From Bacteroidia bacterium (GTDB lineage Bacteria; Bacteroidota; Bacteroidia; AKYH767-A; OLB10), in NCBI GenBank assembly GCA_039931675.1, contig JBDTRM010000046.1:310-64309 (forward strand): DNA of 64,000 bases. The letters run 5' to 3'. The translations under genes were made by a program, and so were the position numbers. The number at the start of each line of letters is the position of its first letter. Position 1 is the stretch's first letter. Positions 33,411 to 53,280 of this stretch are shown here, one piece after another. Under the pieces are notes generated by a model. That model saw only the letters and a list, made by a program, of their open reading frames with translations, had not been told where the DNA came from and made no database searches.

Positions 33411-33450
33411 TTGTTTTAGAATATTTGGATTGGTAAAGTAGCGAATAAAT
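33411..33450 (-). repeat. array-2 element, degenerate copy without ORF
   Basis: + strand ttgttttagaatatttggattggtaaagtagcgaataaat; the ATG is lost. Confidence 0.6.
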
Positions 33451-33640
33451 GGGTGGATTGTTGCCTGCCTTCGCTCACCCAGCCCTTAAAGGGCACTGCC
33501 ACACAAGTGTTTAGCATCTTAATCATTCACTTTTGATTTTATTTCTTTTTTCTTTCCATCATAAAAAAAAATCATCATTAGAAACATAAGCGGGCTGAGC
33601 TCTTTAGCGCTCGGGGGAGCGCGGGAGTAAGAGTTATTTT

Positions 33641-33694
33641 TCAATTCCAGACTCATTTTATAAATATTTGGTTTACGCTAAGTAGGGAATAAAT
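33641..33694 (-). repeat. array-2 element copy b (only a 45-codon ORF follows it)
   Basis: + strand tcaattccagactcattttataaatatttggtttacgctaagtagggaataaat. Confidence 0.85.
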
Positions 33695-33791
33695 AGCTAC
33701 GGAACGAGCTACAAGGACACTTATGAAATTGCAGGAAAGAAACGGAACAGAAAAAGATTTGAGGTTTTTGTGAAAAGGGGTGGCACGGGTT

Positions 33792-34454
33792 TTATTTTAT
33801 CAATTTCCCTTTATTATATTTTTCTATTCTTATCAACTGATTATTCTCATCAAAATAAAACCAGTCACTGTCTTTGACCTGGCAACAAGTAACACTATCG
33901 TATGATAGATAAGGGGGAAAAGTGTCGCGAACAGAAATTGTATCACAAATACTTTCAGGGAAATATTTGCCAATAGCTTTTAATGTTTTTGTTGAATCTT
34001 TATCCTCCCATACACCATAATATCCAGCACCATTGACAGAAAAGCCCCCACTTTTTTGTTTTCCATTTTCGTATTGCATACTATAAATCAAAGTATCATT
34101 AATTGTAACATTAGTATAAATTGAATTGTCTTCCCAGGTTGTTGATCTAATCTTCTTATCATGATAAAAGAATACTTCATACCTTAAGCTATCATAAGTG
34201 TAATTTTTCCAAACTCCTTCTTTGAGTTTATTGATAATGTTGCCTTCAGCCTTTAAGGTTTCTTTATTGTACATTTTAACATAGTACTTTGAAGTATCAT
34301 CGCAATTATAATATTTCCTCCTTTCCAAATTGCTCCAAAAATTATTATGTGAAGGTTGAACATTTACTATGCGTTCACATGGCTTATCGGATTCGGTAAA
34401 TGTCAATGAAAATGAACTCAGGAAAATTAACCAAAATGTTTGTCTGTAAGTCAT
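33792..34454 (-). CDS. MORN-variant/YwqK-like repeat protein with signal peptide
   Basis: KAEGNIINKLKEGVWKNYTY..., GVWEDKD... repeats; ATGA overlap with the upstream gene. Confidence 0.6.
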   Translation of the reverse strand: MTYRQTFWLIFLSSFSLTFTESDKPCERIVNVQPSHNNFWSNLERRKYYNCDDTSKYYVKMYNKETLKAEGNIINKLKEGVWKNYTYDSLRYEVFFYHDKKIRSTTWEDNSIYTNVTINDTLIYSMQYENGKQKSGGFSVNGAGYYGVWEDKDSTKTLKAIGKYFPESICDTISVRDTFPPYLSYDSVTCCQVKDSDWFYFDENNQLIRIEKYNKGKLIK

Positions 34455-35029
34455 TTGATAATTGAGTAAACGTTTATTCTATCAATACTTTCAACAATCC
34501 CTGCATTGCGCAAAGGATGGGACTCTGAATTAACTTCGCTTGATTCCATAAATTCAAATGTTTCTATCCAGAAAAATAAACACCATCTATAATTTACTCT
34601 TCTTTCGTAACGTTGTTTTTTATCAATTAATAAAACTTCTGTTTGCCTTGCCCAAAACAAACCAAAATCTTTAGGTCTTTCAACGCATGTAAAATAAACT
34701 AAGTTGAACTTGCTTTGTAAAGAATCAGTTGACCTCCAATTTTCTTTTGTCTGAAAATAGATGTAATGAACATTCAATTTCTTTTTCAATACATCTTTAT
34801 CATCTTTAAGGTTATGGGACAAATAGATATTTAAATCGTTACCACATTCAGAAACAACAAAATCCTGAACAAAAACACTATCAGCATGATGAGTAAGCGT
34901 AGCAAAATAATCAGGAAGCAATTTATCTTTCAATCCATGTTGCCCAACAAAATGATATGACAAAATTTGAATAGCAAGAAGCGACAGAATAATTATCAGC
35001 CACTCTCTTATTCTGTTTTTAAAAATCAT
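34451..35029 (-). CDS. hypothetical membrane-anchored protein
   Basis: 192-codon ORF with one N-terminal TM helix. Confidence 0.5.
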   Translation of the reverse strand: MIFKNRIREWLIIILSLLAIQILSYHFVGQHGLKDKLLPDYFATLTHHADSVFVQDFVVSECGNDLNIYLSHNLKDDKDVLKKKLNVHYIYFQTKENWRSTDSLQSKFNLVYFTCVERPKDFGLFWARQTEVLLIDKKQRYERRVNYRWCLFFWIETFEFMESSEVNSESHPLRNAGIVESIDRINVYSIIK

Positions 35030-35078
35030 TCTATTGTTTATTTCTCATTAACAAATCTAATGGTAGTAGTTTCACATT

Positions 35079-35657
35079 CTAATTATCAGCCCATATAATG
35101 TTTTTAACATTATCACTCCTGTGATGAATTTTTGTAATACTAACCTTATTTAAGTCAAATGATTTATCCACTTCATAAAAGTCAAAACCTAACTTAATTT
35201 TTTCAATCATCTTAATTTTTTTGACGGACATAAAGTTTGCTTCAAAGTCTATTTTACCATTTGGTGAAATTTCTTCTATTACCGGAACATCTAAATAACA
35301 GTAACGAGTGTTCCATAATTTAAAGACAGCGGTGTCATATTGCAAACTATACTGCATTCCATCACATGAAGATGATAAGAAATAAACTGTATCCAAATTG
35401 TTATTGAATAAAGTCCCCTGAATTTTTAAAATCTCTATTTGAAACTTTGGAATAACTGATGATTTTTCAAGTTCCATATTATTTGGTTTTATAAATTCAA
35501 TATTTTCTGCTTTGAAATCAAACCTGATGTTTTTGTGATTAATAGAATTGGAAATTTTTTCTTCGTCAAATTGTATTGCAGGAAATTTTTTTTGCACGCC
35601 CTCATTACAAGAAAATGCAAATGAAATTGTCAACAGGAATAGCATTACCCGCAACAT
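35079..35657 (-). CDS. hypothetical lipoprotein
   Basis: Lipobox ISFAFSC after the internal Met MLRVMLFLL (ORF track start 35735 trimmed). Confidence 0.5.
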   Translation of the reverse strand: MLRVMLFLLTISFAFSCNEGVQKKFPAIQFDEEKISNSINHKNIRFDFKAENIEFIKPNNMELEKSSVIPKFQIEILKIQGTLFNNNLDTVYFLSSSCDGMQYSLQYDTAVFKLWNTRYCYLDVPVIEEISPNGKIDFEANFMSVKKIKMIEKIKLGFDFYEVDKSFDLNKVSITKIHHRSDNVKNIIWADN

Positions 35658-35769
35658 TTTTCGGATGCCATTTACAATTATAATAGCATTTATTTTCTCT
35701 GCGCTTTGTGAAAAGTGATAATTATTCATCATCATAATTTGGATTTTCTATTTCATCATCTGAAGGTAA

Positions 35770-36243
35770 TCATCCATTATTGATCTTTTCAATCAAGGAT
35801 TTCAGATAACCGAGTACACCTCTCTTAGTGCAATCTATGCAAACGACCTTATTTGTTTCAACGTCTTTGTCATCAATTGTTGCACCGGCTACTTCAGTTG
35901 CAAACCAAAATCCTTTTGCAAAATTTTTATGTGATGTTGTCATAGGTGTTTTATCATAGTCTTGCGGTTCACCTGTTTTTTCTTCCTTTTGAACTTCTCT
36001 CCAAACAATTTCCTCGTCAAAGTAATCTTCCGTTTTGGATGAAAGTTGCCCGGCACTGCAAGTATAACAAACACCTTTATCAAGGCATCTGATAATTACT
36101 TCATTTAATAGCTCACTGTCTTCATTATCAGCAATAGTAAAAGCAATCCAATTATTTGTTGGAAGTTTCTCAAACTATTTATTGTCAGTGCGGACATTGC
36201 AATAAAGAATTTGCCGGTTATTTATTTCTCCTAAAATTTCCAA
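35770..36243 (-). pseudogene. cassette gene disrupted by an in-frame TAG and lacking a start codon
   Basis: Continuous frame LEILGEINNRQILYCNVRTDNK*FEKLPTNNWIAFTIADNEDSELLNEVIIRCLDKGVCYTCSAG...GYLKSLIEKINNG; TAG at 36175-36177. Confidence 0.45.
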
Positions 36244-36282
36244 TAGAGTAATTTAATTATTTACAACTTATTCCAACCAACA

Positions 36283-36996
36283 TTAATTGTACTTCTTTCT
36301 TCTAATTAAAATTCCATTTTTGAATTCTTCTTCTAAACGTAAATCCCCGTTCATCCTCCAATATTTCCAAACTCCATTCTTTGGAGGTAAATAAGTGGTA
36401 CGAACTTGTGTTATGAATAATGTGTCAGTTTTATTGACACCGTTTTCATTCATGTCAAATTTATTGATGTAAATATTATCTTGTCCGTACCTTATGGTGT
36501 CAAAATAAATTTGTTTTTTCATAGGAGGGGTAGGGTCATTTGAAAAAGCACAACTGTTAATGGAATCCCTTTTTGACATTTGATAACTTCCCTGGCTCTT
36601 TTTTGTTCCATCATCAAAATATTCTATCCATTCTCCGGTTCTGAAATCCTTGAAGTATTTGCCTTTCCTTTTAATATTTCCATTGTAATAATATTCAACA
36701 AATGGACCTTCAAAATTTGCATTAGTGTTGGAGGTAATAGTATAAACCGGTTTACCATTTAAAAAATAGGCGGTTTCAGTTGCAATTGTCAGCGTTGAAT
36801 CAACAATAATTATCCTTTCTACAACATCTCCACCTTCATAATTACACCTAAATATATATTGCCCGGTTACTGAATCATGTTCGTGACTGAAATAGTCGGG
36901 ATTCATATAGTAATTAAAAAAGGCAACAGTATCCTGGGCAACTACTTCACTGCAACATACAACCAGAAAAATATAAATTAAACAGAAGGATTTCAT
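36283..36996 (-). CDS. MORN-variant/YwqK-like repeat protein with signal peptide
   Basis: FEGPFVEYYYNGNIKRKGKYFKDFRTGEWIEYFDDGTKKSQGSY and KNGVWKYWRMNGDLRLEEEFKNG. Confidence 0.65.
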   Translation of the reverse strand: MKSFCLIYIFLVVCCSEVVAQDTVAFFNYYMNPDYFSHEHDSVTGQYIFRCNYEGGDVVERIIIVDSTLTIATETAYFLNGKPVYTITSNTNANFEGPFVEYYYNGNIKRKGKYFKDFRTGEWIEYFDDGTKKSQGSYQMSKRDSINSCAFSNDPTPPMKKQIYFDTIRYGQDNIYINKFDMNENGVNKTDTLFITQVRTTYLPPKNGVWKYWRMNGDLRLEEEFKNGILIRRKKYN

Positions 36997-37203
36997 TTAA
37001 TAAGATTTTTGTTTTACGTTTTGAACTATTCAATTGGTATGCATTGACGCGTACTAAGCCGAAACTGTTTATTGAATGTTCGTCAGTTTGATGTTAGCAC
37101 TGTTTCTGCAAAATGGCAGCTCACATGTTATTATCCTAACAAACATAATCGAAAGGTTCTTATATCCAATATGTTTATATCACGGCAATGTTTATACTGA
37201 GAT

Positions 37204-37237
37204 AAATTTGACAACTTTCAAAAAAGTTGTCAAATTT
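37204..37237 (-). terminator. perfect 15-bp stem-loop AAATTTGACAACTTT-caaa-AAAGTTGTCAAATTT
   Basis: 10 nt downstream of the stop of 37247..37798; related to the palindrome at 10792-10824. Confidence 0.6.
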
Positions 37238-37246
37238 CTTGTCGCA

Positions 37247-37798
37247 TTAATTGACATACACAAAGCGACTAAATAATTGAAAGTCTATTCCCAAAGTTAA
37301 ATAAGTCTGATTCGAAAATGTTTCCGTTGTTTTTATCGGCACCAAAACTCCGAGGAATAAATATTTATTTGAATTCACTGTATAACCAATGTGTAAGTCA
37401 GCAAATTGGTTTAGTTCATTTTTTCCAAAAAAAACATCATAAAAAAAACCGATTTTAAGTTTTACTTGTGTTCGGGGAAGAATTTTAAAGATATCTCCGA
37501 TTTTTAGTTTAAGGAGGTTTTCCTGATTTAAATTGGCATACCCAATGGAAAAATTAATATCGTTATCATAAACTCTTTTACAATTGCTTGTTCGGGTATA
37601 TAGCCAGTATCTGAAAGTTAGATTAGCATTATAAACAAAAGGACTTGGGAACATAAATTCTGGTCCGACATACAAAGACGGTCCAAAATCAGCAAAATAA
37701 CACGTCTTTTTAACTGAATCAACAGGTACTATGTCTTGAGCGAAAAGATTTTGCGATAGAAAAAAAAATAGAATAAGCATTCTACCTGTTTTCGTCAT
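37247..37798 (-). CDS. hypothetical secreted protein (possibly small beta-barrel)
   Basis: Signal peptide LSQNLFAQD; alternating hydrophobic pattern; C-terminal aromatic-rich end. Confidence 0.5.
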   Translation of the reverse strand: MTKTGRMLILFFFLSQNLFAQDIVPVDSVKKTCYFADFGPSLYVGPEFMFPSPFVYNANLTFRYWLYTRTSNCKRVYDNDINFSIGYANLNQENLLKLKIGDIFKILPRTQVKLKIGFFYDVFFGKNELNQFADLHIGYTVNSNKYLFLGVLVPIKTTETFSNQTYLTLGIDFQLFSRFVYVN

Positions 37799-37914
37799 TC
37801 CCTGAAAAATTGAATCAACATATTAATATCCATATATCTTTTTATTCATGATTTGTCCCTTGTTTAGCTTTACCTGATACTTCAGTCACAGGAAATAGGA
37901 ATTGTTCAGTTCCA

Positions 37915-38466
37915 CTAATTAAATAATACAATGAGTAATAAAATCACAGCTATAACAATCAATGTCACCTTAATTTCAAAACCGAAAAAAGGCTTAATAT
38001 CTGTATATGGGGCTGTTACCAAACCTAAATCTTTTGTGATTTTATCCACTGCTTTAGCGTCTTTACTTTTGAAGAAATAGGTTTGGGTAGGATAGGTGTC
38101 AAGCTGAACGCCAACATTTTTATCTTCACGGTAAAACTCAATATTCCTGCGCGAAAGCAACGCTTCAAATTTTGGTATATCTGCAATCCTCACTTGAAAT
38201 GAGTTGTCCTGATTTTTAAACTCAACTACATTTTTATAGTATGCTGCTTTCTCTTTAACTTCCTGTTCATAGAATTTTTCTTCCTCTGTTTCTTTCTGAT
38301 CTCTTTCTTCCAGCTTTTTATTAAGATCATCTGTCCATTTTCTTTCCGCAATAATCTGCTTTGCTGCAATTACTGCATCGGGTTGATAGTCGTCAGGTGA
38401 CAGAACAATTTTAAACAGTTCGTCTTTGTTGAAACTTTTATAGGTGTCGTAAAACTTTGTTGTCAT
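37915..38466 (-). CDS. hypothetical tail-anchored protein
   Basis: 183 aa with a C-terminal TM helix; its ATG overlaps the stop of the element-encoded uORF (ATGA). Confidence 0.55.
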   Translation of the reverse strand: MTTKFYDTYKSFNKDELFKIVLSPDDYQPDAVIAAKQIIAERKWTDDLNKKLEERDQKETEEEKFYEQEVKEKAAYYKNVVEFKNQDNSFQVRIADIPKFEALLSRRNIEFYREDKNVGVQLDTYPTQTYFFKSKDAKAVDKITKDLGLVTAPYTDIKPFFGFEIKVTLIVIAVILLLIVLFN

Positions 38467-38515
38467 AAAATACCTTCATAATTCATTTTAAAAATATTTG
38501 GTTCGCGAAAAGTAA
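38467..38515 (-). repeat. array-2 element copy c (distal end diverged)
   Basis: + strand aaaataccttcataattcattttaaaaatatttggttcgcgaaaagtaatc. Confidence 0.8.
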
Positions 38516-38529
38516 TCATATCAATTTTT

Positions 38530-39042
38530 TTAAACTTTGTTCAATGCGGAGAGAAATTGTTTAGCATCATGAACTATTTTGTCTTTATACAAGTCAACTT
38601 TTTTTAATTTCTCTTTGAGCATTTGGCTATCCCATTGATGGTATTCTGATGGTATTGGCAAATCGTCCAATTCACTTTCGTAACCGATACCAAGTTTAAC
38701 CGGAATAAAACTTTCTCCTGTATCAAAATAAAGTTCGCGAAGTTTACGTGTTGCTTCAACTAAATCAATTTTTTGTTCGATAATGTCTGTCAGGAGTTTT
38801 TTTGCTCTCCAAATATTAAACTCATCATTGTCAATGTATGGTTTTATTTTCTCTTTAATTTTTGAAAAACTGCCCCTTTGATTGTAGTCAAAAGAGATTA
38901 GGTCAAAATGTAGTTCGGCTTGTAAATCTGTTTCAAGAATATCTGAGTATTTATAAACCCATTGTTCAAAATCTTTGACAGATAAATCAAGGTTAAGGAG
39001 TTGAAAAAATATCTGCTTCGTAGTTTCGGTTAATTTGTTCAT
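38530..39042 (-). CDS. hypothetical 170-aa cytoplasmic protein, paralog A
   Basis: Near-identical to 42311..42823 over about 350 nt. Confidence 0.6.
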   Translation of the reverse strand: MNKLTETTKQIFFQLLNLDLSVKDFEQWVYKYSDILETDLQAELHFDLISFDYNQRGSFSKIKEKIKPYIDNDEFNIWRAKKLLTDIIEQKIDLVEATRKLRELYFDTGESFIPVKLGIGYESELDDLPIPSEYHQWDSQMLKEKLKKVDLYKDKIVHDAKQFLSALNKV

Positions 39043-39054
39043 TTAAAATTGATG

Positions 39055-39354
39055 TTAATCTCTCTTATGCCCGCAAGCAGCACAAAATGAAGCTTGGGGT
39101 GTTCGATATGGCTTGCCACAGTTTTCACAAGGCGGTCCGTATATAGAAATACGATGATGCATAATCGCATTTGGCTCCGTTTCTTCAAATCCCGTTATCT
39201 CAAAATAATAATCAAGTATTTTTTTAAATCGTTCTTGTCTATTATGCTTTAAGTTTTTAAATTCCTCAGAATAATAAAGACGAGCTTGTTCATATTCAGC
39301 TTCATCAAGCATCGGAATTTCCATTTTACATCGCCAGCACCAAAGAGCCTTCAT
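39055..39354 (-). CDS. small zinc-ribbon protein
   Basis: CWRC ... CENC ... CAAC cysteine pairs. Confidence 0.5.
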   Translation of the reverse strand: MKALWCWRCKMEIPMLDEAEYEQARLYYSEEFKNLKHNRQERFKKILDYYFEITGFEETEPNAIMHHRISIYGPPCENCGKPYRTPQASFCAACGHKRD

Positions 39355-39411
39355 TTATTTATTAATTTTATTTATTCAACTTGAGTATGGATAATTGCAA
39401 AAAGTAAAATT

Positions 39412-40065
39412 TTATTTAAGGGGCAATATTAACCGTTTGCCATTTGTGAAATTAACTACTATTTCAATTTCTTTTACTTCTGTCATTCCAATAGTATCAT
39501 CTTGAAATTCTTTTGGCAGAGAAATCATTTTAATTGCCTTATTGTTTTCTGAAAAAAGGTTTCTCTCTTTTTTTAAATTAAAAGCTCCTTTTGCGAATAA
39601 CTTTGTTTTATCCGAAGCAATCTTATAAATAAAAATATCTCTATTAGATTCTGCTGAACGTTCCATTCGATAACTATCCATTTTCATTTGACCATTTATC
39701 AATTCGCATATTGTTATTTCACCATCATTAGGACTTGAACATACAACTAAATAAATCGAATTACTGTCATTGTAAAAAAATTTCGGAACGTATTTATGAG
39801 GTGAACGGCAATCAAATTGATAACCAAGAATTGTATCCTTCCCTTGAATACTTACCTCCACGGTATAAAAACTGTCAACAACTATATATTTCACAAAAGT
39901 TCCTTCAGAAATTATAGTGTCCCATTTATACATGCATTGATAAATGCTGCTATCCCTTTCCTTTGCTTTTGCTGCTATATCATCATGCGATTTCTTCTCA
40001 ACGTTAGAACAACCTGAATACAAAAAAGCAAGAAATAAAATTCTTAATGAATAAACACGGAACAT
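39412..40065 (-). CDS. hypothetical lipoprotein
   Basis: Lipobox FLYSGC after MFRVYSLRILFLA. Confidence 0.5.
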   Translation of the reverse strand: MFRVYSLRILFLAFLYSGCSNVEKKSHDDIAAKAKERDSSIYQCMYKWDTIISEGTFVKYIVVDSFYTVEVSIQGKDTILGYQFDCRSPHKYVPKFFYNDSNSIYLVVCSSPNDGEITICELINGQMKMDSYRMERSAESNRDIFIYKIASDKTKLFAKGAFNLKKERNLFSENNKAIKMISLPKEFQDDTIGMTEVKEIEIVVNFTNGKRLILPLK

Positions 40066-40124
40066 AGAACCATTTTTCAATTCGATTCAAAAGTCATAAG
40101 TTAAATAAAAACATTCAAGTCTGA

Positions 40125-40586
40125 TTAATTTTTGACAGAATCGCATAATGATCTATTAAAAAGTACTATCTTATATAAATCTGGTGAATAATCTTCCTCT
40201 CTGTCAGGCTTTATTATTTTATTATTCCGATAAATATAAATCGAGTTAATATTTTCAAGTAGTAACGAATCTATATTATAACGTTCCACAAAGTATTTGT
40301 TGTTATGGAGAGGATTTTCTATTTGAAAAAAAACACTAATTGAATCTTCGAAATGGAAACATGCTCCGGAAATTATATCCATATCAAGAACCAAAGGTTT
40401 TATACAGTAATATTTAAACGGGATGTTATTTAATATGGAGTCACAGCGTCTATTTAAATTATCTGCAATATTAAAATCGTTAACAAAATAATTTTCAATT
40501 TTGGAAAACTTCAAAACCTTATTTTTTTGACCTGATGCGGATGCCAGGCAAAATGTAACAAGAGAAAGAAAAATAATATATTTCAT
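40125..40586 (-). CDS. hypothetical secreted protein
   Basis: Signal peptide MKYIIFLSLVTFCLASASG. Confidence 0.5.
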   Translation of the reverse strand: MKYIIFLSLVTFCLASASGQKNKVLKFSKIENYFVNDFNIADNLNRRCDSILNNIPFKYYCIKPLVLDMDIISGACFHFEDSISVFFQIENPLHNNKYFVERYNIDSLLLENINSIYIYRNNKIIKPDREEDYSPDLYKIVLFNRSLCDSVKN

Positions 40587-40637
40587 TTCGTTACTTCTTA
40601 AAATTCAATTCTCTTTATTATTGAAAAGTTAACTTGA

Positions 40638-40961
40638 TTAAAATTGCTCAAACTTTCTCAATTTAATTTTCCATTGTTTTTCTTTTTTAATGACATAAAC
40701 ACAAGCATTGTAGGAATACCAAACTATAACGACTGCATATTTCTTTTTTACTATTAAAGGATAACTGCACGAAACAAGTTCCCTAGGACGTTCTGTTTCT
40801 TCTGATAGCGTTGCTAATCGAAATGGAATATTTAAACGACAGTTTTCTAAGTTAATTTGATAAGATGTATTTGGCACAATGTCTTTAAACTTAAAATATT
40901 TTTTCATGTCTTTATATTCCAATTCAAAAAGTGTTTTTGTAACTTTAAACTGAGGTCGCAA
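40638..40961 (-). CDS. hypothetical protein
   Basis: 107-codon ORF, co-directional, non-overlapping. Confidence 0.4.
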   Translation of the reverse strand: MRPQFKVTKTLFELEYKDMKKYFKFKDIVPNTSYQINLENCRLNIPFRLATLSEETERPRELVSCSYPLIVKKKYAVVIVWYSYNACVYVIKKEKQWKIKLRKFEQF

Positions 40962-41099
40962 TTGTGTCTTGATTTTTAGACATACTTCAAATCCATATTT
41001 CCATTTGGTTTACCGGATTAAAACCCACCTTTAAAAATTTCTCTTCTAAATATAATTTTCATCCCTTATGTGCGTGAAGGTATTTCATAGTGCTTGTAT

Positions 41100-45459: not shown

Positions 45460-45500
45460 GATGTTGTTTTAAAGTGTTTGATTCATACTAAAACGATTCC

Positions 45501-45555: not shown

Positions 45556-45598
45556 TATGAATAAGAAGATGAATAAATTATTTACACTTCAATACATA

Positions 45599-47065
45599 TT
45601 ATTTACATTTTAAAGCGGCCTTCCATTTTCTTATATCATTTTTATAATCATCAAGCGAAAGATATGTCATACCTGCTGTTCCCAGGTTAACGCTGGATGG
45701 AATTTTTGTAATCCTACACATATCCGTTACAATTGAGTCTATAAAAAAACCATAATCTTTATGGTTCGCAAGTATGTCAAGTTTTTCGCAGGGTGACATA
45801 TTTTTGTATTTGTTCCATGATACATTTTCTCTATCAAAAAACATGTTATTAGTTTTATCAATAACATATTGATAACTGTTATAACCCGTTTCCAGGTTAA
45901 AGTAAAGAAATCCATATTTCTTTGAAAAAAGAAACTCAGAAATATAATATGACCCGTGACTTAACTCACCATAATCTGAGAAACTTACAAAATTGATATA
46001 ATCATCCAAAAATTTCTCTTTCAATACATAAGATACCATTATGCCGAATGGGTTATTTTTATAAAACAAACTATTCATTTTAATAGTGGGACCGATATCA
46101 TTCACTAAATAATATTGATACTTTTTTTTAAACATAAGAGACTCATAAATCACTGCGTTCCTTTTAACAATTAAAAAGTCGTCAGGTTGCGAAAAATATG
46201 AATGATCGTTTATTAAAACCTTGCACCTGAATCGCCCTGTTTCAAATTTATTTTCCTTTGATAAAATAATTTTCAAAGGAACATTTTGCCCGTCTTCATA
46301 GTATTTAGAAATTAATCTATAGTTGGTGGTATCACTCATTAGACACAAATCATTCTTTAATTTTGTTTCAGGCTCTTTGAGTAAAATCAAATGATTTAAT
46401 GTGTCAATAACCTGGGATATTGGCAATTCAGTATTTGCCCGTTTTGTTGGGTTTTTATAAGAAGTACTATAAGTCAAATCAGGGTTTTTAAAATATTTTC
46501 TCTTTTTTAATTCCTCCAACAGCCATTTATTTAGAATGGTTGAATGTGATTTTAATGTATCAATTATTGATGGCAGATGTTTTTCAATTGCTTTTTGCTC
46601 GTCCTCATATAGGTAAGTAATTTTATCACAGGCATAAACATGTACTTCAAAAATCCGATTTTTACTTTTAATAAATAAAACAGAAAATGGCAGCCAACTG
46701 CCACCCATATCGTATGAACATTCAATACAATGTTGACCATTTGAATGAACAAAACGAGGATTAAACACTAAAGTATCTGAGGCTGGGTTAAGGTAGCGTA
46801 ACATATTATTACTCTCCCAATAAGCGGTGTCATGTTGATTAATCGTATCAAAAGATAAATCCATTGAAGGAACATAGACATTTACCTGGCTTCTGTTTTC
46901 TAAAGCTTTACAGTATGAATTATAATGCAAAAGGTAGAGTTGCCACTTGATTTCATTTTTATAGGGAAGCAAGGTATCTACCGGAATATTCGGTCTATCA
47001 TTTTTGGTTAATGGCGCATTGCATGAAAACAGCAATACAATGACAACTACAATTCCATATTTCAT
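45599..47065 (-). CDS. hypothetical lipoprotein
   Basis: MKYGIVVVIVLLFSC: the element-encoded MKYGI is fused in frame to the lipoprotein signal peptide. Confidence 0.55.
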   Translation of the reverse strand: MKYGIVVVIVLLFSCNAPLTKNDRPNIPVDTLLPYKNEIKWQLYLLHYNSYCKALENRSQVNVYVPSMDLSFDTINQHDTAYWESNNMLRYLNPASDTLVFNPRFVHSNGQHCIECSYDMGGSWLPFSVLFIKSKNRIFEVHVYACDKITYLYEDEQKAIEKHLPSIIDTLKSHSTILNKWLLEELKKRKYFKNPDLTYSTSYKNPTKRANTELPISQVIDTLNHLILLKEPETKLKNDLCLMSDTTNYRLISKYYEDGQNVPLKIILSKENKFETGRFRCKVLINDHSYFSQPDDFLIVKRNAVIYESLMFKKKYQYYLVNDIGPTIKMNSLFYKNNPFGIMVSYVLKEKFLDDYINFVSFSDYGELSHGSYYISEFLFSKKYGFLYFNLETGYNSYQYVIDKTNNMFFDRENVSWNKYKNMSPCEKLDILANHKDYGFFIDSIVTDMCRITKIPSSVNLGTAGMTYLSLDDYKNDIRKWKAALKCK

Positions 47066-47103
47066 TTTTAAAATATTTGGTTTGCGAAAAGTAGGTAATA
47101 AAT
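47051..47103 (-). repeat. array-2 element copy g
   Basis: + strand aattccatatttcatttttaaaatatttggtttgcgaaaagtaggtaataaat. Confidence 0.9.
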
Positions 47104-47169
47104 AATCTGCAATATTGCGCTATAATTTAAAGTGAGCTATTATTCGGTTATCTATTCAAAAAGTCGAAT

Positions 47170-47337
47170 ATGAAAAAAAAGGATTTGATAATTTATGTAC
47201 CCATTTTTATAATTTTTTTACTTGAAATTTTTTGGAAAGATGGAATGGTTACAATATTTGGACATTTTGGATTAGTTATTTTGTACAGTGTCTCTGCATT
47301 GATCCTCATGATTAAAGTGATTTTTTTTAGAAAATAA
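47170..47337 (+). CDS. possible 55-aa two-TM mini-protein
   Basis: MKKKDLIIYVPIFIIFLLEIFWKDGMVTIFGHFGLVILYSVSALILMIKVIFFRK, found by hand; its stop is 1 nt before the next ATG. Confidence 0.3.
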   Translation: MKKKDLIIYVPIFIIFLLEIFWKDGMVTIFGHFGLVILYSVSALILMIKVIFFRK

Positions 47338-47338
47338 A

Positions 47339-47560
47339 ATGAGAACATTCGAACGCATAATTTTTACTTATTGTTATAAAATAACCAAAGTTTTTTTTAT
47401 ATGTATGCTTTTTATAATTAGCGTTATCGACTTATGGCCATTTAATTTAGAAAAAATGCCTCCGATCATAGCTTACCTTTTTTGGCTTTCATTAGGATTA
47501 GTGTTAGGTTGCTATTGGGCAATAGAATCTGTCAAATATTTAAATAAATATAAGGACTAA
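47339..47560 (+). CDS. possible 73-aa two-TM mini-protein
   Basis: ORF track entry; two hydrophobic helices; one of only two + strand ORFs inside array 2. Confidence 0.35.
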   Translation: MRTFERIIFTYCYKITKVFFICMLFIISVIDLWPFNLEKMPPIIAYLFWLSLGLVLGCYWAIESVKYLNKYKD

Positions 47561-47590
47561 AACGCATTCCACAGCCAGGATACTGAGGGG

Positions 47591-48259
47591 TTACCAATAG
47601 ACATTGATCTCGAATGCATTTTCAAAAGTATAATCTGTCTTTTGGATTTCTGTTATGAAATTACCTGTTAAAATGAATTTATTTTGGAAATTATAAATGC
47701 GGAAATTATTAAAATGATTATTTAATATTTTTAATTCATCCATATCTCTCGTTTCAAAAATCTTATTGTAAATAACTTTATTACCAGCTTTTGTTTGTAT
47801 GATGAATTCTCCCTGGAAACTTTGCAATGTATCCTTATCAACATTAACAGGTTTAGGATTCTCTTTAATATTCTTAAAAGAAAAAATCAGGTAATTCTTA
47901 AATCCCAAAGTTGGGGAAACAACCTCACTAAGATTAAATGCCTTCAAGAATGACTTGAATTCAACTGAATCAATTATATAGTCTCTGAAGTTACCATCGT
48001 ATATTTTAAAATCATTGGTGGAATCAGCATTTAACTTAAAAAAATAATTATTAAACATATAAAACATTTGAGTTTTATTATTTACAAAATCATGTAGATA
48101 GTATAAATTTTGCTTTCTTATATCATTTAAGGGGTCATTAAGCTTATACAATCCCATGTTCCCCTCTGGTGTAAAGTACGCTACATTACCCTCAAAGGTT
48201 TCCTGACAACCATTAAAAATTAATATTGAAAAGAATATTGCGAAATAGTAGTGTTTCAT
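47591..48259 (-). CDS. hypothetical lipoprotein
   Basis: Lipobox LIFNGC after the internal Met MKHYYFAIFFSI. Confidence 0.5.
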   Translation of the reverse strand: MKHYYFAIFFSILIFNGCQETFEGNVAYFTPEGNMGLYKLNDPLNDIRKQNLYYLHDFVNNKTQMFYMFNNYFFKLNADSTNDFKIYDGNFRDYIIDSVEFKSFLKAFNLSEVVSPTLGFKNYLIFSFKNIKENPKPVNVDKDTLQSFQGEFIIQTKAGNKVIYNKIFETRDMDELKILNNHFNNFRIYNFQNKFILTGNFITEIQKTDYTFENAFEINVYW

Positions 48260-48261
48260 AA

Positions 48262-48579
48262 TCAGATAGTTTTTATATGAAAATGCAGGAGACACATTAT
48301 TGTTAAAACGCAATTCATCACAAGAGTTAAGGCAAGTATTATTTTATAGAACAAAGATTCTGTAATCGAGGTCCTTTTTAAAAACATCTGATAAAAAAAC
48401 CACATGACGAGGTAGAATATATTTAATCCAACCAAGTAAATCAATGCATCAGGAATCAAGAAGAAAAAATAGATTGGTTTGCTTAAAAAATACATAACAA
48501 CCAAACCAATAAAACCTGTTGATATGGCAAAAAGATTAAAAGATAATCTCTTGTTTCTTAAGTAATCAGTTATTCCCAT
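48262..48579 (-). CDS. hypothetical small multi-TM protein
   Basis: 105 aa with three hydrophobic helices. Confidence 0.45.
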   Translation of the reverse strand: MGITDYLRNKRLSFNLFAISTGFIGLVVMYFLSKPIYFFFLIPDALIYLVGLNIFYLVMWFFYQMFLKRTSITESLFYKIILALTLVMNCVLTIMCLLHFHIKTI

Positions 48580-48624
48580 TATTCATTTCAAAAATATTTG
48601 GTTTGCTAAAAGTAGGAAATAAAA
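48571..48624 (-). repeat. array-2 element copy h
   Basis: + strand attcccattattcatttcaaaaatatttggtttgctaaaagtaggaaataaaaat. Confidence 0.85.
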
Positions 48625-48681
48625 ATACTGAAGCGATAAGAGTTATAAATGTATTGTGATTGGCAGAATTAAATTTTAATA

Positions 48682-49653
48682 TCAGCGAACAACAAATGCA
48701 GGAACAACATTAAAATTTCCGTCTCTTTCAAAGTAATATAATGAATCATTTTCAAACTCTTTTACTTTCATAAAAAAATGTCCCGTCCAAAATTCTTTAT
48801 CCAAAGGACTAAATTCAAAAGTAACTGTGCCGCTATAATTTTGGCCAAAAACAGTCTCTCTCATTTGAATAAAATACGTATTTCTTAACTGCGTTCTGCA
48901 TTCATCAATTTTACTGTACTCTGCAGTTCCGGAAGTGTATTGCAGTGGAAACACATTAAGCAAGGTATCCGCAACTGTCCTATAGCCTATAAAACCTATC
49001 CCGAAATACTGATCGAATTTAGTTTGATAAATAATTGTCACAAAACATTTTAAACACGAGGTGTCATAAATAATTGTGTCAACCTTGATATTTGCAATGC
49101 TATCAAGAAAGTCTTTAACAAATCTTCCGAAATAATTTTCATTTGGGTTAAATTCATTTATTGGATAGTTTTTTCTTGTTAAGGTATCAAGGTAATTTTT
49201 AAACGCATGTTCAATTTCTGTTTTATCTTTTGAGTAAGAAAGACAAATTGTGTGTTTGTTACTCGAATTTCTTATGGCTTCTTCAACATCTTTTTCCGAC
49301 TTCTCAATTATATCTCTATAAGACATATCAGGGAACCTGCTATGAAAAGGGAAGTTATTTATTCCGAAAGTGGTAAAAACAGTTATTGATAAAACAGAAA
49401 CCAAAATTATAAATGGCCTTGAAATTTTTCGGAAAAGCATTATTAAAAGTTTTGTGGAACCGAATAAAATGAAAATCTCAATTATCCAAAAAGCCCAAAA
49501 GAACATTAGACCATCGTCCCTCGTGACAAAAATTAAAAGAAAATAAATGATTGGGAAAAACGGAATATATATAAAGTATAGAATAGGAATTGTAAGGAGA
49601 ACAGAATTCAAAAATGCTGTTAGTACAAGAATAATATTACGCAGTCTGTTCAA
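48682..49653 (-). CDS. hypothetical membrane protein
   Basis: 323 aa with an N-terminal multi-TM region. The TTG start sits at the position of the element ATG. Confidence 0.5.
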   Translation of the reverse strand: MNRLRNIILVLTAFLNSVLLTIPILYFIYIPFFPIIYFLLIFVTRDDGLMFFWAFWIIEIFILFGSTKLLIMLFRKISRPFIILVSVLSITVFTTFGINNFPFHSRFPDMSYRDIIEKSEKDVEEAIRNSSNKHTICLSYSKDKTEIEHAFKNYLDTLTRKNYPINEFNPNENYFGRFVKDFLDSIANIKVDTIIYDTSCLKCFVTIIYQTKFDQYFGIGFIGYRTVADTLLNVFPLQYTSGTAEYSKIDECRTQLRNTYFIQMRETVFGQNYSGTVTFEFSPLDKEFWTGHFFMKVKEFENDSLYYFERDGNFNVVPAFVVR

Positions 49654-49692
49654 TTTTTAAATATTTTGTTTTGCGAAAAGTAGGGAATAAAT
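49651..49692 (-). repeat. array-2 element copy i
   Basis: + strand caatttttaaatattttgttttgcgaaaagtagggaataaat. Confidence 0.85.
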
Positions 49693-49768
49693 GGGTGATT
49701 AAAATATTGAGGAAGAAGGAAGCAATCAATATTTCAGAGGCACTTTCTACTTGATAATATGATCAAAT

Positions 49769-50269
49769 TCAATTTTTAAATTCAATTTCCACTACCGTTG
49801 AACCATTTAATATTTCTTTAGTTGTTCCATCTTCATTCATTTGTCTTGCTGGAATCCATCTCGGCATTTTTCTAATAATTCTAAGAGCTTCTTTGGAGCA
49901 ATCAGGGCACTTACGAAGCGGAGTAATTAAAATTGCTTTCGTTATTCTTCCCTTTTTATTTATCTCTAATTTAAAATCAACTGTGCCGTTTAGGTTAAAC
50001 ATTTTGACCTGTTCAGGTATTTTAATGTTTGCAGCAATAAATTTATTCAAAGAATCTTCACCCCCTGCAAAGTCAGGACCAAGGAATGTGCTATCTATTC
50101 CAACTCCTACATCATAAAATACTGTGTCACTGCTCTTATGCATATTTGAATCAGAAACAGGATTAATAGTATCCGCTGATAAATTACTATTGCTTTTTTT
50201 ACTTCTATCTTTTTCGGTACATGAAAAAAAGAAGAGACAACAAATAAAAATCAGTTGAAGTTTTTTCAT
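49769..50269 (-). CDS. lipoprotein with TonB C-terminal-like domain
   Basis: Lipobox FFFSC; GGEDSLNKFIAANIKIP...NGTVDFKLEINKKGRITKA...RKMPRWIPA pattern. Confidence 0.55.
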   Translation of the reverse strand: MKKLQLIFICCLFFFSCTEKDRSKKSNSNLSADTINPVSDSNMHKSSDTVFYDVGVGIDSTFLGPDFAGGEDSLNKFIAANIKIPEQVKMFNLNGTVDFKLEINKKGRITKAILITPLRKCPDCSKEALRIIRKMPRWIPARQMNEDGTTKEILNGSTVVEIEFKN

Positions 50270-50313
50270 CTTTTATTTTAAAAATATTTGGTTTATAAAA
50301 GTAGAGAATAAAA
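50270..50313 (-). repeat. array-2 element copy j
   Basis: + strand cttttattttaaaaatatttggtttataaaagtagagaataaaaat. Confidence 0.8.
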
Positions 50314-50337
50314 ATATGCACATAAAGAACTATCGGG

Positions 50338-50985
50338 TCACATGCTGAATAAGCGAGTTGTTTTGTAGATGCTCTTAATTTTCAAAAAGTCTGAAAAACA
50401 ATAATAACAAAGACTCTTAACATAAATCCCATCAGAATTAATTCTGGTGATAGTTATTAAATTATCAGTTATTCCAGCATTGGCACTGGCACACTTCATA
50501 TTTGGAATGTTTTCAGCTATTGAAATATAATTTTCATAATCAAGTTTTGATATTTTAACTTTTTTATTTTCTAATGGAAGTCCTTTAAAGTATCCATTTT
50601 TTGAATTAAATATCACGAGATCATAGAGAATATTATGACCACCACCTTCCACAGATGTTTCAACAATATCAATTCGTAAAAGGCTATCACCCTTATTCTT
50701 TTCAATAAAGTCAGCAATCCAAATTGATATCCCAAATTGAACAATGCTATCTGAAATGATTGAGTCAAAGCTACATTCAACCCCTTTTTTATACACTTCC
50801 CTTGAATCATTCGAATCTAAACCGATACATTTTAGTTCATTGAGTGAAGTAAGTTTTTTTTCTTTCCAATCTTTAAGGAACAAAGTTTTATCAAAATTAA
50901 TTGGCTTCAGATTTATCTTATGGCCCGATTTATTGCAACTAATAGAGCAGCATGAAATCAAAATAGAAATGAAGATGGCTTTCAT
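50338..50985 (-). CDS. hypothetical lipoprotein
   Basis: MKAIFISILISCCSISC; the element-encoded 20-codon uORF stops 2 nt before this ATG. Confidence 0.5.
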   Translation of the reverse strand: MKAIFISILISCCSISCNKSGHKINLKPINFDKTLFLKDWKEKKLTSLNELKCIGLDSNDSREVYKKGVECSFDSIISDSIVQFGISIWIADFIEKNKGDSLLRIDIVETSVEGGGHNILYDLVIFNSKNGYFKGLPLENKKVKISKLDYENYISIAENIPNMKCASANAGITDNLITITRINSDGIYVKSLCYYCFSDFLKIKSIYKTTRLFSM

Positions 50986-51030
50986 ATTTAGTTTACAAGT
51001 GTAAAACAAGCACTGATTTGATACTTTTTA

Positions 51031-51080
51031 CTGACAATTCCATAATTCATTTTAAAAATATTCGGATCGAAACGCACAAG
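51031..51080 (-). repeat. array-2 element copy k (distal half diverged)
   Basis: + strand tgacaattccataattcattttaaaaatattcggatcgaaacgcacaag. Confidence 0.75.
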
Positions 51081-51115
51081 ATTGTTTCAAGAATGTATTT
51101 GATGATAACTTCAAC

Positions 51116-51616
51116 TTATTTTATTATTTCTGGTTTTGGATTAGTCTTTAAATATTTTTCAAGTTTAATTGTATCGCTTATAAAATCAGTTGTAACGTAT
51201 CTTAAATGATTAAAAGTAATACCATAATATTCTATGTAATCAACAACATCATGAGTGCCTATACCTCCCTCCCTGTAACAAATTAAATAAACAGAATCAG
51301 ATAGACATACGAAGTTCAATATCCTGTCGAATTTGTAATCACCTAAAGAGGCATCCGAAAAGTTAATCTGTTTAATATCTGAACTGTCACCTATTTTAAA
51401 GGGAGAGTTGTCTAAAATGCTTAAACTATCAATGATAAATATTGGAATTGCAGATTTATCTACAGAATAAGTATATCGCTTTGATATTAAAAATTCTGAT
51501 ACCCGATTTTGTATAGTATTGGCTACTTCTGATTTGGGATTAATACAATCCGAAAAAAGTGATATTAAAAGAATTGCACCTAATACTTTCATAAGCTTTT
51601 CAATTCCATACTGCAT
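51116..51616 (-). CDS. hypothetical lipoprotein
   Basis: MQYGIEKL (element-encoded) fused in frame to MKVLGAILLISLFSDC. Confidence 0.5.
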   Translation of the reverse strand: MQYGIEKLMKVLGAILLISLFSDCINPKSEVANTIQNRVSEFLISKRYTYSVDKSAIPIFIIDSLSILDNSPFKIGDSSDIKQINFSDASLGDYKFDRILNFVCLSDSVYLICYREGGIGTHDVVDYIEYYGITFNHLRYVTTDFISDTIKLEKYLKTNPKPEIIK

Positions 51617-52149
51617 TTTAAAAATATTTGGTTTGCGAAAAGTAGGGAATAAGAGAAACTATTTAGTTTGAAAAAAGACATCTTCACCTGGGCACCAGTT
51701 ACAACTCCAAAAATGACTGACTTAAACTTATCTTCTTCAATGTTTGAATCGGTTACATAATGACCGTAAGTATTTTTTGCTAATTGATAATTTGTATAAT
51801 AGTCAAAGACAAATTTTTTGGGTACATCCCAGTCAAGGACAAATCTCTTTTTAAAATAATTCATGGAATCAGTTAAGTAAGGTAATTCCAAAATATCCAC
51901 TCCAGCATTAATTTGTAATGCCAAAATTGGCCTTATAAAAAGTGTTGTGTCAATAAGTAGTTTTCCCCTTGAAATTGATTTAACAATAGTATCATTTTTG
52001 TAAATAAATTTAATAACATCGTTATTGGAAATTGAAATTGTATCTGTGTTTTTAATAATAATTATATCAACTTCAGGAAAATGTTGCTGTGCATATAAAT
52101 TAGTTGTCAATGCCATAATCAAAACAAAAAAAATAATTCTCACATTCAT
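51589..52149 (-). CDS. hypothetical secreted protein
   Basis: Signal peptide LTTNLYAQQ; its last ~20 codons read through element copy l. Confidence 0.5.
   Translation of the reverse strand: MNVRIIFFVLIMALTTNLYAQQHFPEVDIIIIKNTDTISISNNDVIKFIYKNDTIVKSISRGKLLIDTTLFIRPILALQINAGVDILELPYLTDSMNYFKKRFVLDWDVPKKFVFDYYTNYQLAKNTYGHYVTDSNIEEDKFKSVIFGVVTGAQVKMSFFKLNSFSYSLLFANQIFLKCSMELKSL
51599..51652 (-). repeat. array-2 element copy l
   Basis: + strand ttcaattccatactgcattttaaaaatatttggtttgcgaaaagtagggaataag; lies inside the 3' end of ORF 51589..52149. Confidence 0.9.
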
Positions 52150-52190
52150 TTTTAAATCTTCACAGTTTTATTCCTAATTCAATTTTTATC

Positions 52191-52230
52191 CATTTAAAAT
52201 ATTCAGTATCCCGAATTACGCACAATGCAT
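52191..52230 (-). repeat. array-2 element, degenerate copy
   Basis: + strand catttaaaatattcagtatcccgaattacgcac; resembles the diverged copy k. Confidence 0.4.
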
Positions 52231-52319
52231 CAGACGGCAAATGTATAGCACACATTTAAGCTAGTTATTGTGCATGTATAAAGTTTTTAAAAGAAGTGGC
52301 TGTGAGCCGGGTTACCCCA

Positions 52320-53201
52320 TTATTCTTCAATATATTTCCCAATGTCTGTCGAAAATTTATAATGTCGAGTTTTAATTTGTTTATCATCTACCTCTAAAGT
52401 GCTTAAGTTATAATGAGATTTCGGTTTTACTATAGTCGTATATGAAGGAACCTTATTATTTTCCAAATAGGTTTCACTAAATCCATAGTAAAAGGAAAGT
52501 ATTTCTGTTAAAGCTGAATTTTCTAATCCATTGATGTAATACCGCTCTATTGAAAAGAGACTTTCCCCTCCTTCTAAGTAGCCTCCATTTCCTCCAAGGC
52601 CATAAGATAAACTCAAACAAGTCCATTTGTCTCCTATTTCTTTTAATTCAATTTTTGCTGGAATAAGTCCGGTAGATTTATAAGTACCAAAATATCCTAT
52701 TTCATCAATTTCCTTTTGAAATTTATATAGCTCCCACTTATTGTATTTAGTCTTATAGAATAATGCAACCCCAATTGGAACTCCACAAAAGTGACATCCT
52801 GTAGGCTCAACCTTTTTGTCGTATTCGTGCATCTGAAAATTATAGGTTGAGAAAATAGCAACACCACATTCTGTATTCTTAGTGTCTTTGAAAAACATTA
52901 TTGTGTCTAAAGAAGTATGGAATTGATTGTCATAAGAAAGTGGAATTGGTAATGAAGTCAAATCATAGTAATTTGGTTTCCACACAGCCATTTCCAAACT
53001 ATCAATTTTGGGATTGTCGAAAAGTCGAAGTAATAGTTCTCGCTTGTCAAGTGTTCTAAATGAAATTGCCTCTGTTCGGTTTGTAGCTTCAATATTAGTG
53101 CTTAGGTTATTCTTTCCTGTATTACTTTCCTTTTGTCTTTCACAACCAGGAAAAAATATAGCTAAAACAAATATAGTTAGTAACAAGGTACAATGTGTCA
53201 T
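52320..53201 (-). CDS. hypothetical lipoprotein
   Basis: Lipobox IFFPGC; its ATG overlaps the stop of the element-encoded uORF MNYPIAISEMYNRQ (ATGA). Confidence 0.55.
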   Translation of the reverse strand: MTHCTLLLTIFVLAIFFPGCERQKESNTGKNNLSTNIEATNRTEAISFRTLDKRELLLRLFDNPKIDSLEMAVWKPNYYDLTSLPIPLSYDNQFHTSLDTIMFFKDTKNTECGVAIFSTYNFQMHEYDKKVEPTGCHFCGVPIGVALFYKTKYNKWELYKFQKEIDEIGYFGTYKSTGLIPAKIELKEIGDKWTCLSLSYGLGGNGGYLEGGESLFSIERYYINGLENSALTEILSFYYGFSETYLENNKVPSYTTIVKPKSHYNLSTLEVDDKQIKTRHYKFSTDIGKYIEE

Positions 53202-53220
53202 TGTCTATTATACATTTCGC

Positions 53221-53280
53221 TGATTGCAATTGGATAATTCATTTTAAAAATATTCGGTTTGCGAAAAGTAGGGAGTAAAT
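53221..53280 (-). repeat. array-2 element copy m (promoter-proximal end of array)
   Basis: + strand tgattgcaattggataattcattttaaaaatattcggtttgcgaaaagtagggagtaaat. Confidence 0.9.

Follow-up and report, generated by a model that had tools for sequence, protein, structure and literature searches.

How does one short sequence come to stand at the head of many genes that share nothing else, and what does it do there? These questions are raised by a locus of a Bacteroidia bacterium (GenBank assembly GCA_039931675.1, contig JBDTRM010000046.1, with a length of 78,840 nucleotides), of which we analyzed 64,000 nucleotides (nt), positions 310 to 64,309 of the forward strand, here called the window and numbered from its first letter. 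A repeat of about 60 nt, hereafter the element, recurs in the window in front of short runs of minus-strand genes. An earlier note, made from the letters of the sequence without database searches, had listed 14 copies and had read them as boundaries at which mobile cassettes were joined. Our leading interpretation, held with a little more than even confidence, is that the element is a portable expression module that precedes unrelated, probably horizontally acquired genes (the cargo) and that was spread by ordinary recombination.

Copies and anatomy of the element

A profile made from 13 copies was searched against the 64-kb window with nhmmer and matched 14 sites at E<1e-6, referred to as E1 to E14, all of them on the minus strand. 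Element cores of 22-31 nt occurred 8 times each at up to 3 mismatches and were absent from 100 shuffles, and a repeat finder grouped 12 copies of 55 nt. Overall, homology extends over 52-64 nt per copy. Mean identity between copies is 0.81-0.85 (up to 0.95) across a 42-nt core and 0.27-0.29, the random level, in the 40 nt on each side. Thirteen of the 14 positions given in the earlier note coincide with profile matches; the one at 52191 gave none, and E14 and two weak remnants had been missed. The copies and remnants are as follows.

E1, 53222-53283, minus strand: full element, with its ATG at 53242
E2, 51598-51655, minus strand: full element
E3, 51032-51069, minus strand: only the 3' half is kept (leader, ATG and first codons)
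E4, 50262-50313, minus strand: element ATG changed to ATA
E5, 49641-49694, minus strand: ATG gone
E6, 48563-48624, minus strand: element with a 6-codon reading frame behind its ATG
E7, 47042-47104, minus strand: element ATG is the start codon of the cargo
E8, 45503-45562, minus strand: lacks the 5' ATTTATTCCC block
E9, 43299-43361, minus strand: first ATG changed to ACG, second ATG of the element in use
E10, 42832-42893, minus strand: at the head of an 8-gene unit extending to 38530
E11, 38462-38523, minus strand: lacks the 5' block; at the head of a 7-gene unit extending to 33792
E12, 33634-33697, minus strand: full element, followed only by a 45-codon reading frame and no substantial cargo
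E13, 33400-33451, minus strand: degenerate, without ATG, about 120 nt upstream of a tetratricopeptide repeat (TPR) gene (32318-33280), at the distal end of the main island
E14, 23519-23576, minus strand: full element in the small second island, outside the interval covered by the earlier note
Weak remnant, 24075-24112, minus strand: E 0.03, overlying the start of gene 23625-24092 (MKYEIE...)
Weak remnant, 22923-22948, minus strand: E 0.002, with no gene after it, abutting the 3' end of the convergent floA

Within the window, the copies are confined to two islands of low G+C content (GC), and none was found at the approximately 35 genes outside them.

Main low-GC island, 33400-53283, minus strand: 31.0% GC; at least 12 units of 1-8 genes, each headed by an element, with about 30 genes in all, in the same orientation
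Small second island, 22920-24690, minus strand: 30.4% GC, three small genes (22977-23507, 23625-24092 and 24147-24659)

The 8.6-kb block between the islands has a GC of 37.2% and the remainder of the window 36.9%, which bears out the description of the main region as AT-rich in the earlier note. Both islands were probably acquired horizontally, and copies without cargo lie at the distal end of each. Run SRR26386622 was assembled independently in Logan; that assembly matches 51623-57704 with 100% identity, has E1 and the edge of E2 in exactly the same form and ends inside E2. Because the two assemblies agree at 100%, the repeat is not an invention of assembly, and a break inside E2 is to be expected where a true repeat lies.

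On the coding strand the consensus reads ATTTATTCCC-TACTTTTC-GCAAACCAAATATTTTTAAA-ATG-AAWTATGGAATTGCAATCAG, with the strongest conservation in the block from TACTTTTC through the ATG. The TACTTTTC box begins 29 nt upstream of the ATG and has 1 mismatch to the Bacteroidetes -7 consensus TAnnTTTG; between box and ATG lies an A/U-rich, unstructured leader of about 20 nt. The position of the repeat at 5' ends, the one-mismatch box, the A/T-rich leader and the ATG had been described before and were seen again here. The outer blocks are less constant. The 5' ATTTATTCCC block is absent from E3, E8 and E11, and the part after the ATG is absent or diverged in E4, E5, E13 and E14. The 5' limit of homology (ATTTATT) is sharp, 11 copies agreeing on it to 2-3 nt; the 3' limit is ragged, lying anywhere from +0 to about +35 after the ATG depending on the copy. 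Ordinary core genes of the window have TAnnTTTG boxes as well, 23-97 nt upstream, a spacing that the box of the element shares, and an identical TACTTTTC stands at -28 of a gene that has no element (53768-54013). A sigma-70 promoter scan found 112 promoters where 103 were expected, by a method that is uninformative for Bacteroidota.

The element has no conserved secondary structure: RNAalifold predicted 0 pairs for the 14 aligned copies, and the consensus fold was no better than shuffles (z = 0.34). No Rfam 15 family reached its gathering score anywhere in the window. Recurrent inverted repeats were not found in the island, nor were terminal inverted repeats or flanking target duplications around the copies, and the 3' ends of units and the sequences upstream of elements share no motif beyond the AT-rich background.

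The genes behind the element and their surroundings

The element ATG is related to the cargo in three ways: it is fused in frame, it is lost, or it opens a short upstream open reading frame (uORF). In-frame fusion is seen in E7 and E2, where the element ATG starts the cargo, and in E9, where the second ATG of the element does so. E7 leads into a lipoprotein of 488 amino acids (aa; 45599-47065, MKYGIV...) whose N-terminus, MKYGIVVVIVLLFSC, is a lipoprotein signal, and the ATG of E2 is in frame with a lipoprotein gene at 51116-51616. The second ATG of E9 starts cargo 42892-43314, the stop of which abuts E10, and an upstream open reading frame (ORF) at 51589-52149 reads through E2; both junctions had been pointed out in the earlier note. 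The ATG is lost in E4, E5 and E13, and in the first two of these the cargo starts a few nt away. The E4 cargo (49769-50269, a TonB_C lipoprotein) begins 6 nt beyond the mutated ATG and the E5 cargo (48682-49653, a protein with multiple transmembrane segments) begins at a TTG within the element.

In 7 further copies a uORF of 6-26 codons begins at the ATG. The uORFs of E1 (14 codons) and E11 (7 codons) each end in a TGA that overlaps the ATG of the cargo as ATGA (cargo 52320-53201 and 37915-38466, respectively), that of E14 (8 codons) comes to its stop 1 nt ahead of the GTG with which cargo 22977-23507 starts, and that of E3 (20 codons) 2 nt ahead of the ATG of its cargo (50985). The uORFs of E6 (6 codons) and E10 (26 codons) overlap the starts of cargo 48262-48579 and 42311-42823, respectively, out of frame, and that of E8 (11 codons) ends 29 nt before cargo 43378-45459. 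Thus 4 of the 7 uORFs stop no more than 3 nt from the cargo start on either side (-3 to +3). Against a dinucleotide Markov null this placement had P = 0.0014 for a window of -3 to +5 nt that was picked after seeing the data, and non-random placement of the stops is suggestive at that level. The sequence after the ATG is conserved as DNA through changes of frame and not as peptide, and the cargo proteins therefore have no common N-terminus.

Most of the cargo appears to be exported: about 19 of the 25 proteins examined have a signal-peptide, lipoprotein or transmembrane N-terminus. Multi-transmembrane and cytoplasmic proteins are among the cargo. In an all-against-all BLASTP, the cargo proteins were unrelated to one another except for a duplicated 170-aa gene and similarity in MORN repeats. 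Pfam recognized only MORN_2 (36283-36996), TonB_C (49769-50269) and a C-terminal cytochrome c domain (in the 693-aa lipoprotein encoded at 43378-45459) among about 30 cargo proteins, with no Imm, SUKH or other known immunity family. NCBIfam added nothing for the cargo, a sequence search of the PDB gave no function, and PADLOC, run on 10 cargo proteins, returned one weak match (HEC-01B, E 0.004). Two cargo proteins gave confident AlphaFold2 models (pLDDT 95 and 87), for which Foldseek matched no solved fold. The duplicated gene is present as two copies.

Copy A, 38530-39042, minus strand: 170-aa gene, all-alpha, no Pfam family and no PDB fold match
Copy B, 42311-42823, minus strand: the same gene

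The central approximately 320 nt of the two copies are 100% identical, while both ends are about 85% identical. The identical center and diverged ends indicate gene conversion within the array. The family has 35 homologues, and in the six contexts that were fetched (from Fluviicola, soil and other metagenomes) these are single genes, with no toxin neighbors or arrays around them. A search of 5.8 billion proteins gave a single homologue of gene 42892-43314. Gene 52320-53201 is a member of an uncharacterized family of 118 clusters, in which the member closest to it stands singly amid housekeeping genes.

From 22977 to 59804 all genes are on the minus strand save two small plus-strand membrane ORFs. 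The earlier claim that every substantial gene of the array is on the minus strand thus holds for real-looking ORFs of at least 90 aa but does not extend to these two. The genes that adjoin or interrupt the main island are listed here.

47170-47337 (55 aa) and 47339-47560 (73 aa), plus strand: small hydrophobic ORFs occupying a 485-nt gap without a minus-strand ORF
53305-54013, minus strand: 5' border of the island, with a 119-aa HTH_3 (XRE-type) gene and an 81-aa gene resembling the PF09720 'addiction module component', the latter being the gene that has TACTTTTC at -28

Both border-gene matches in Pfam fall just under the curated cut-off and no toxin partner is evident; beyond these genes lies one for ornithine aminotransferase. 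Elsewhere the window encodes cargo of the type IX secretion system (Por_Secre_tail); the organism is an uncultured, environmental member of the Bacteroidales. No tRNA or tmRNA was found in the 64 kb.

Four other features of the window were noted. At 57732-58388 (minus strand), in what is otherwise core DNA between a gene for a 696-aa membrane protein and ffh, there is a free-standing gene of homing-endonuclease type (HNH_3 and NUMOD4) with a Lys/Ala-rich, histone-H1-like N-terminal tail. The spacer between E12 and E13 (33452-33633, minus strand) contains the GC-rich hairpins CGCGCTCCCCCGAGCGC and GCCCTTTAAGGGC amid AT-rich DNA; they are unique in the window, and the spacer as a whole folds no better than shuffles (z = -0.95). 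Between the islands (24699-32144, minus strand) lie two paralogues of the DUF3857/transglutaminase-like type and a 1113-aa protein with TPR and MORN_2 repeats, the MORN repeats of which resemble those of island cargo 36283-36996. Upstream of gene 24699-26813, at 26814-26880, is a run of degenerate GGGTAT(A/T)(A/G)GG repeats (…agggtataagggtattggggtatagggtataagg…).

Role and spread of the element

As an expression module, the element would consist of the -7 box TACTTTTC, the A/U-rich leader (about 20 nt) and a start codon together with the few codons behind it, and would have come to precede unrelated genes at least 13 times inside the two AT-rich islands. Each unit of 1-8 genes would receive from it a start of transcription and translation of its own. 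For cargo that has its own start, the uORF of the module would end at or next to that start and ribosomes would re-initiate there (translational coupling); at in-frame junctions, the module would supply the first residues of the signal peptide of the cargo. The copies, being direct repeats, would have been spread and kept similar through homologous or illegitimate recombination and gene conversion, with no dedicated site-specific recombinase involved. These data fit selection on an expression core because box, leader and ATG have been kept while the outer blocks eroded, and a translational hand-over to cargo with its own start fits because of the geometry of the uORFs. For the mode of spread, recombination between direct repeats is supported indirectly by the gene conversion in the array, the read-through at E2, the truncated copies and the distal copies without cargo. 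We infer that recombination and gene conversion within the array are the most likely route.

Several points weigh against this interpretation. The promoter and coupling activities are predicted from sequence. The -7 box does not have the final G that is usually conserved, and no conserved -33 motif (TTTG) was seen upstream of the box in the aligned copies. Conservation at the nucleotide level reaches about 20-35 nt past the ATG, which a plain promoter would not need. The sharp limit at ATTTATT that 11 copies have in common could also mark a recombination junction. In addition, the data are 64 kb of one metagenome-assembled genome, in which the order of cassettes could in principle be affected by assembly across repeats.

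The sharp 5' limit is the best argument that the element is instead the recombination site of a cassette-capture system, a functional analogue of integrons or of arrays for acquired interbacterial defence that are associated with a recombinase (rAID-1), with cassettes entering at ATTTATT, expression signals travelling along and the recombinase encoded elsewhere in the genome. Such a system would also explain why a gene stop abuts E10, why an ORF is truncated or read through at E2 and why each island has copies without cargo at its distal end. The general layout of rAID-1 is likewise one of short co-oriented genes with low GC and an intergenic element that is repeated, and homologues of the cargo found elsewhere are single genes among ordinary genes, so that the cargo would have been gathered from diverse sources. 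However, no recombinase is encoded in the whole of the 64 kb (Pfam, run on every ORF of at least 150 aa, gave no Phage_integrase), which widens the earlier observation that none lies within 10 kb of the array, and a tblastn search with a rAID-1 recombinase gave a best E of 0.89. Unlike rAID-1 units, the element has no inverted repeat, hairpin or covarying helix, while all tyrosine-recombinase sites known to us have dyad symmetry. Units have no conserved motif at their 3' ends and the 3' limit of homology differs between copies. We consider capture of this kind improbable, and the view in the earlier note that mobile cassettes are joined at the element boundary found no support here: neither a 3' motif that is conserved nor a crossover site nor an inverted repeat was seen, and the 3' limit varies. 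A 'promoter-first' counterpart of the integron, in which new genes would be spliced behind the module by a recombinase encoded elsewhere or independently of any recombinase, seems doubtful to a like degree; if it existed, each captured gene would be expressed at once, whatever signals it brought.

The conservation past the ATG, maintained over about 20-35 nt despite changes of frame, would be accounted for if leader and first codons formed a post-transcriptional control region through which a small RNA, an RNA-binding protein or the uORF peptide gave one signal to all units; it would then reflect that binding site and not the propagation of a promoter. The uORFs in 7 copies with their non-randomly placed stops, and the XRE-type HTH gene directly 5' of the array, agree with such control. 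We nevertheless give it a low probability: there is no Rfam match and no conserved structure, the uORF peptide is not conserved (6-26 codons), and E4, E5, E9 and E13 have lost the ATG. Moreover, 60 nt at about 85% identity before unrelated genes would still have to be copied there, and a control region is compatible with a portable module, not exclusive of it.

It is also unlikely that the main island is a store of orphan immunity genes (polyimmunity, in the sense of rAID or AID arrays) whose products neutralize interbacterial toxins and for which the repeat just ensures constitutive expression. The genes are small and co-oriented in a low-GC island, about three quarters of the cargo proteins are exported or lipoproteins, as would be expected against toxins that act in the periplasm, antitoxin-like genes stand at the island border and one protein is of the MORN_2 family, which we take to be the YwqK-type family named among predicted immunity families. 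That one protein, among about 30, is all that was found of the orphan-immunity content hinted at in the earlier note. The absence of any immunity family in Pfam or NCBIfam counts against an immunity island, as do the lack of homology to the cargo of 15 rAID-1 loci, the homologues of three cargo genes that occur elsewhere without toxin neighbors, the two confident AlphaFold2 models that match no solved immunity fold, and the presence of the 693-aa cytochrome c lipoprotein and multi-transmembrane proteins. Finally, the repeat could be an artefact or have a trivial cause, such as an assembly chimera formed through a shared k-mer, a miniature transposable element or a paralogous lipoprotein N-terminus. 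The contig is indeed the product of metagenome assembly, and in Logan the sequence breaks at the repeat, but the copies are not alike and no two have the same flanks, E1 and the edge of E2 recur unchanged in an independent assembly, no terminal inverted repeats, target duplications or transposase are present, and the cargo is not paralogous, the shared part being DNA conserved across frame shifts. We regard any such origin as very improbable.

Relatives of the array were sought in sequence collections. Exact 21- to 23-mers of the element had 0 matches in 185,579 GTDB species genomes and 0 in IMG/VR, and just two 21-nt chance matches in JGI metagenomes. The element profile found nothing in 80 loci of relatives, in 10 loci with cargo homologues or in 15 rAID-1 loci. 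The best relatives in GTDB have 73-75% identity in the aminotransferase and no synteny, and the closest aminotransferases among 5.8 billion proteins (88% and 83% identical) have different neighbors. Ten of the 10 island proteins that were looked up form singleton clusters at 90% identity. Neither GTDB representatives, JGI metagenomes and IMG/VR nor a set of 15 billion proteins yielded a related strain or species that carries the array, and only the same strain was recovered (Logan). As a separate observation, a soil contig (L089) carries at 13713-14255 five copies of a motif of about 28 nt (CGAAGTATCTCTT..TACG.CA), spaced by about 100-145 nt between an RtcB gene and a TROVE (Ro60-like) gene; these may be tandem Y-RNA-like genes.

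Comparison with known arrays and repeat families

The rAID-1 arrays of gut Bacteroidales are recognized by a XerD-like tyrosine recombinase 5' of the array, with >44% identity to BF9343_RS08045, and by at least two co-directional short genes with a GC of at most 41%, and their repeats are integron-like or attC-like according to the authors (Ross et al.; bioRxiv 10.1101/471110; PMC12247911). For comparison we used 15 rAID-1 loci of gut Bacteroidales, which were fetched with the BF9343 Orf5 sequence (supplement of PMC12247911) and include those of the named hosts Paraprevotella clara YIT 11840 and Parabacteroides gordonii MS-1 (bioRxiv 10.1101/471110). The repeats of these loci are units of 45-56 nt of the form TAACAA...AACATTA that end 5-26 nt ahead of the next ATG. 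Most fetched loci that hold at least 6 kb contain 6-18 matches to the pattern [AT]AACAA-N25-60-[AG]ACATTA, whereas the array strand of the window contains 0. Within the units lies an inner inverted repeat, with compensatory changes in 2 of 3 predicted pairs and 0 pairs broken in 13 units. In one locus (L107) a Phage_integrase gene (5183-6313) lies directly 5' of the array and has homologues of 68-98% identity in six other loci.

With rAID-1 the window array shares the order Bacteroidales, short co-oriented genes, a GC below that of the host, an intergenic repeat and many functionally unassigned genes; its gene content, about 30 minus-strand genes at 31.0% GC against 36.9% in the flanks, is also within the rAID-1 definition. 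In contrast, its repeat has no palindrome and contains a -7 box, a leader and an ATG, and the window has no tyrosine recombinase, no rAID-type repeats on the array strand and, apart from one MORN_2 match, no cargo homologous to immunity genes of type VI secretion or polymorphic-toxin systems. A tblastn search of the window with the L107 recombinase gave as its best match 17 aa at E 0.89, the element profile reached a best E of 2.7 in the 15 rAID-1 loci, and no significant tblastn match was found between rAID-1 and window cargo. Membership in rAID-1 was therefore rejected on recombinase, repeat type and cargo homology. Two further features of the rAID-1 units were observed in passing. In L095, L107 and the 13 other loci the units have the frame TAACAA-N-(GGA/GGC/AGC)...(TCC/GCC/GCT)-N-AACATTA, with a compensatory inner helix, and at least three stem classes recur inside one array.

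Cassettes of integrons have no promoter and carry an attC hairpin at the 3' end, and the short ORF of attI1 (ORF-11) enhances translation of the first cassette. The window array is like integrons and clusters of attC sites lacking integrases (CALIN) in that unrelated small genes lie in one direction, and a short ORF upstream of the cargo could likewise hand on ribosomes. It is unlike them in that its repeat is 5', unstructured and promoter-like, with no attC and no IntI in the window; recurrent inverted repeats, a shared 3' motif and a tyrosine recombinase are all lacking, and this class too was rejected. The array is thus neither rAID-1 nor integron/CALIN, despite a layout similar to these two, which the earlier note had named as the closest known architectures. 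The note's exclusion of CRISPR, of insertion sequences (IS) or miniature inverted-repeat transposable elements (MITE) and of attC-like sites was upheld: the units are genes, terminal inverted repeats, target duplications and palindromes are lacking, and no scanned ORF of the window has a transposase domain. We also rejected a phase-variation shufflon, as all copies are direct and have no inverted partner, and a paralogous N-terminus, as the DNA is conserved across frame shifts.

There are also families in which one 5' region is used by many genes. In Borrelia the upstream homology box of erp and ospE/F genes, and in Mycoplasma the vlp and vsp genes, provide shared 5' expression regions of lipoprotein multigene families. 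These resemble the array in having a block of promoter, leader and first codons common to exported lipoprotein genes, with recombination among copies, but they consist of related paralogues that are often phase- or antigen-variable, whereas the cargo in the window is unrelated, and no switching device (homopolymer tract or inversion site) was seen in the array. The definition of putative mobile promoters (PMP) calls for an identity of at least 80% along 50 nt or more of sequence upstream of non-homologous genes; their families are mostly pairs and were defined on the region from -150 to -50 (Matus-Garcia, Nijveen & van Passel 2012; PMC3575422). As in PMP families, the element is a similar upstream sequence before non-homologous genes of one genome with no known mobile element attached, and set against the PMP thresholds it has an identity of 0.81-0.85 over the 42-nt core and a total length of 52-64 nt. 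Unlike PMP families, it has 14-16 members, extends from about -40 to +25 and not from -150 to -50, includes the start codon and is restricted to two islands within 30 kb.

If the module works as proposed, the array would be an unusually large and tight case of promoter reuse, with 14-16 copies within 30 kb before unrelated acquired genes, and would show how a genome of the Bacteroidota, in which Shine-Dalgarno-driven initiation is lacking, can provide foreign genes with ready-made starts of transcription and translation, including a hand-over from a short uORF. The array also raises the question of how islands of this kind grow, through a dedicated capture mechanism or through ordinary recombination among copies of the promoter. 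For telling arrays apart, real rAID-1 loci have attC-like TAACAA...AACATTA units and an adjacent tyrosine recombinase, and the window array has neither. Because it lacks these hallmarks, a low-GC, co-oriented array with intergenic repeats is not a single kind of system in Bacteroidales. The array is akin to the promoter-reuse families and to the Bacteroidales accessory arrays with intergenic repeats, and lies outside both rAID-1 and integrons.

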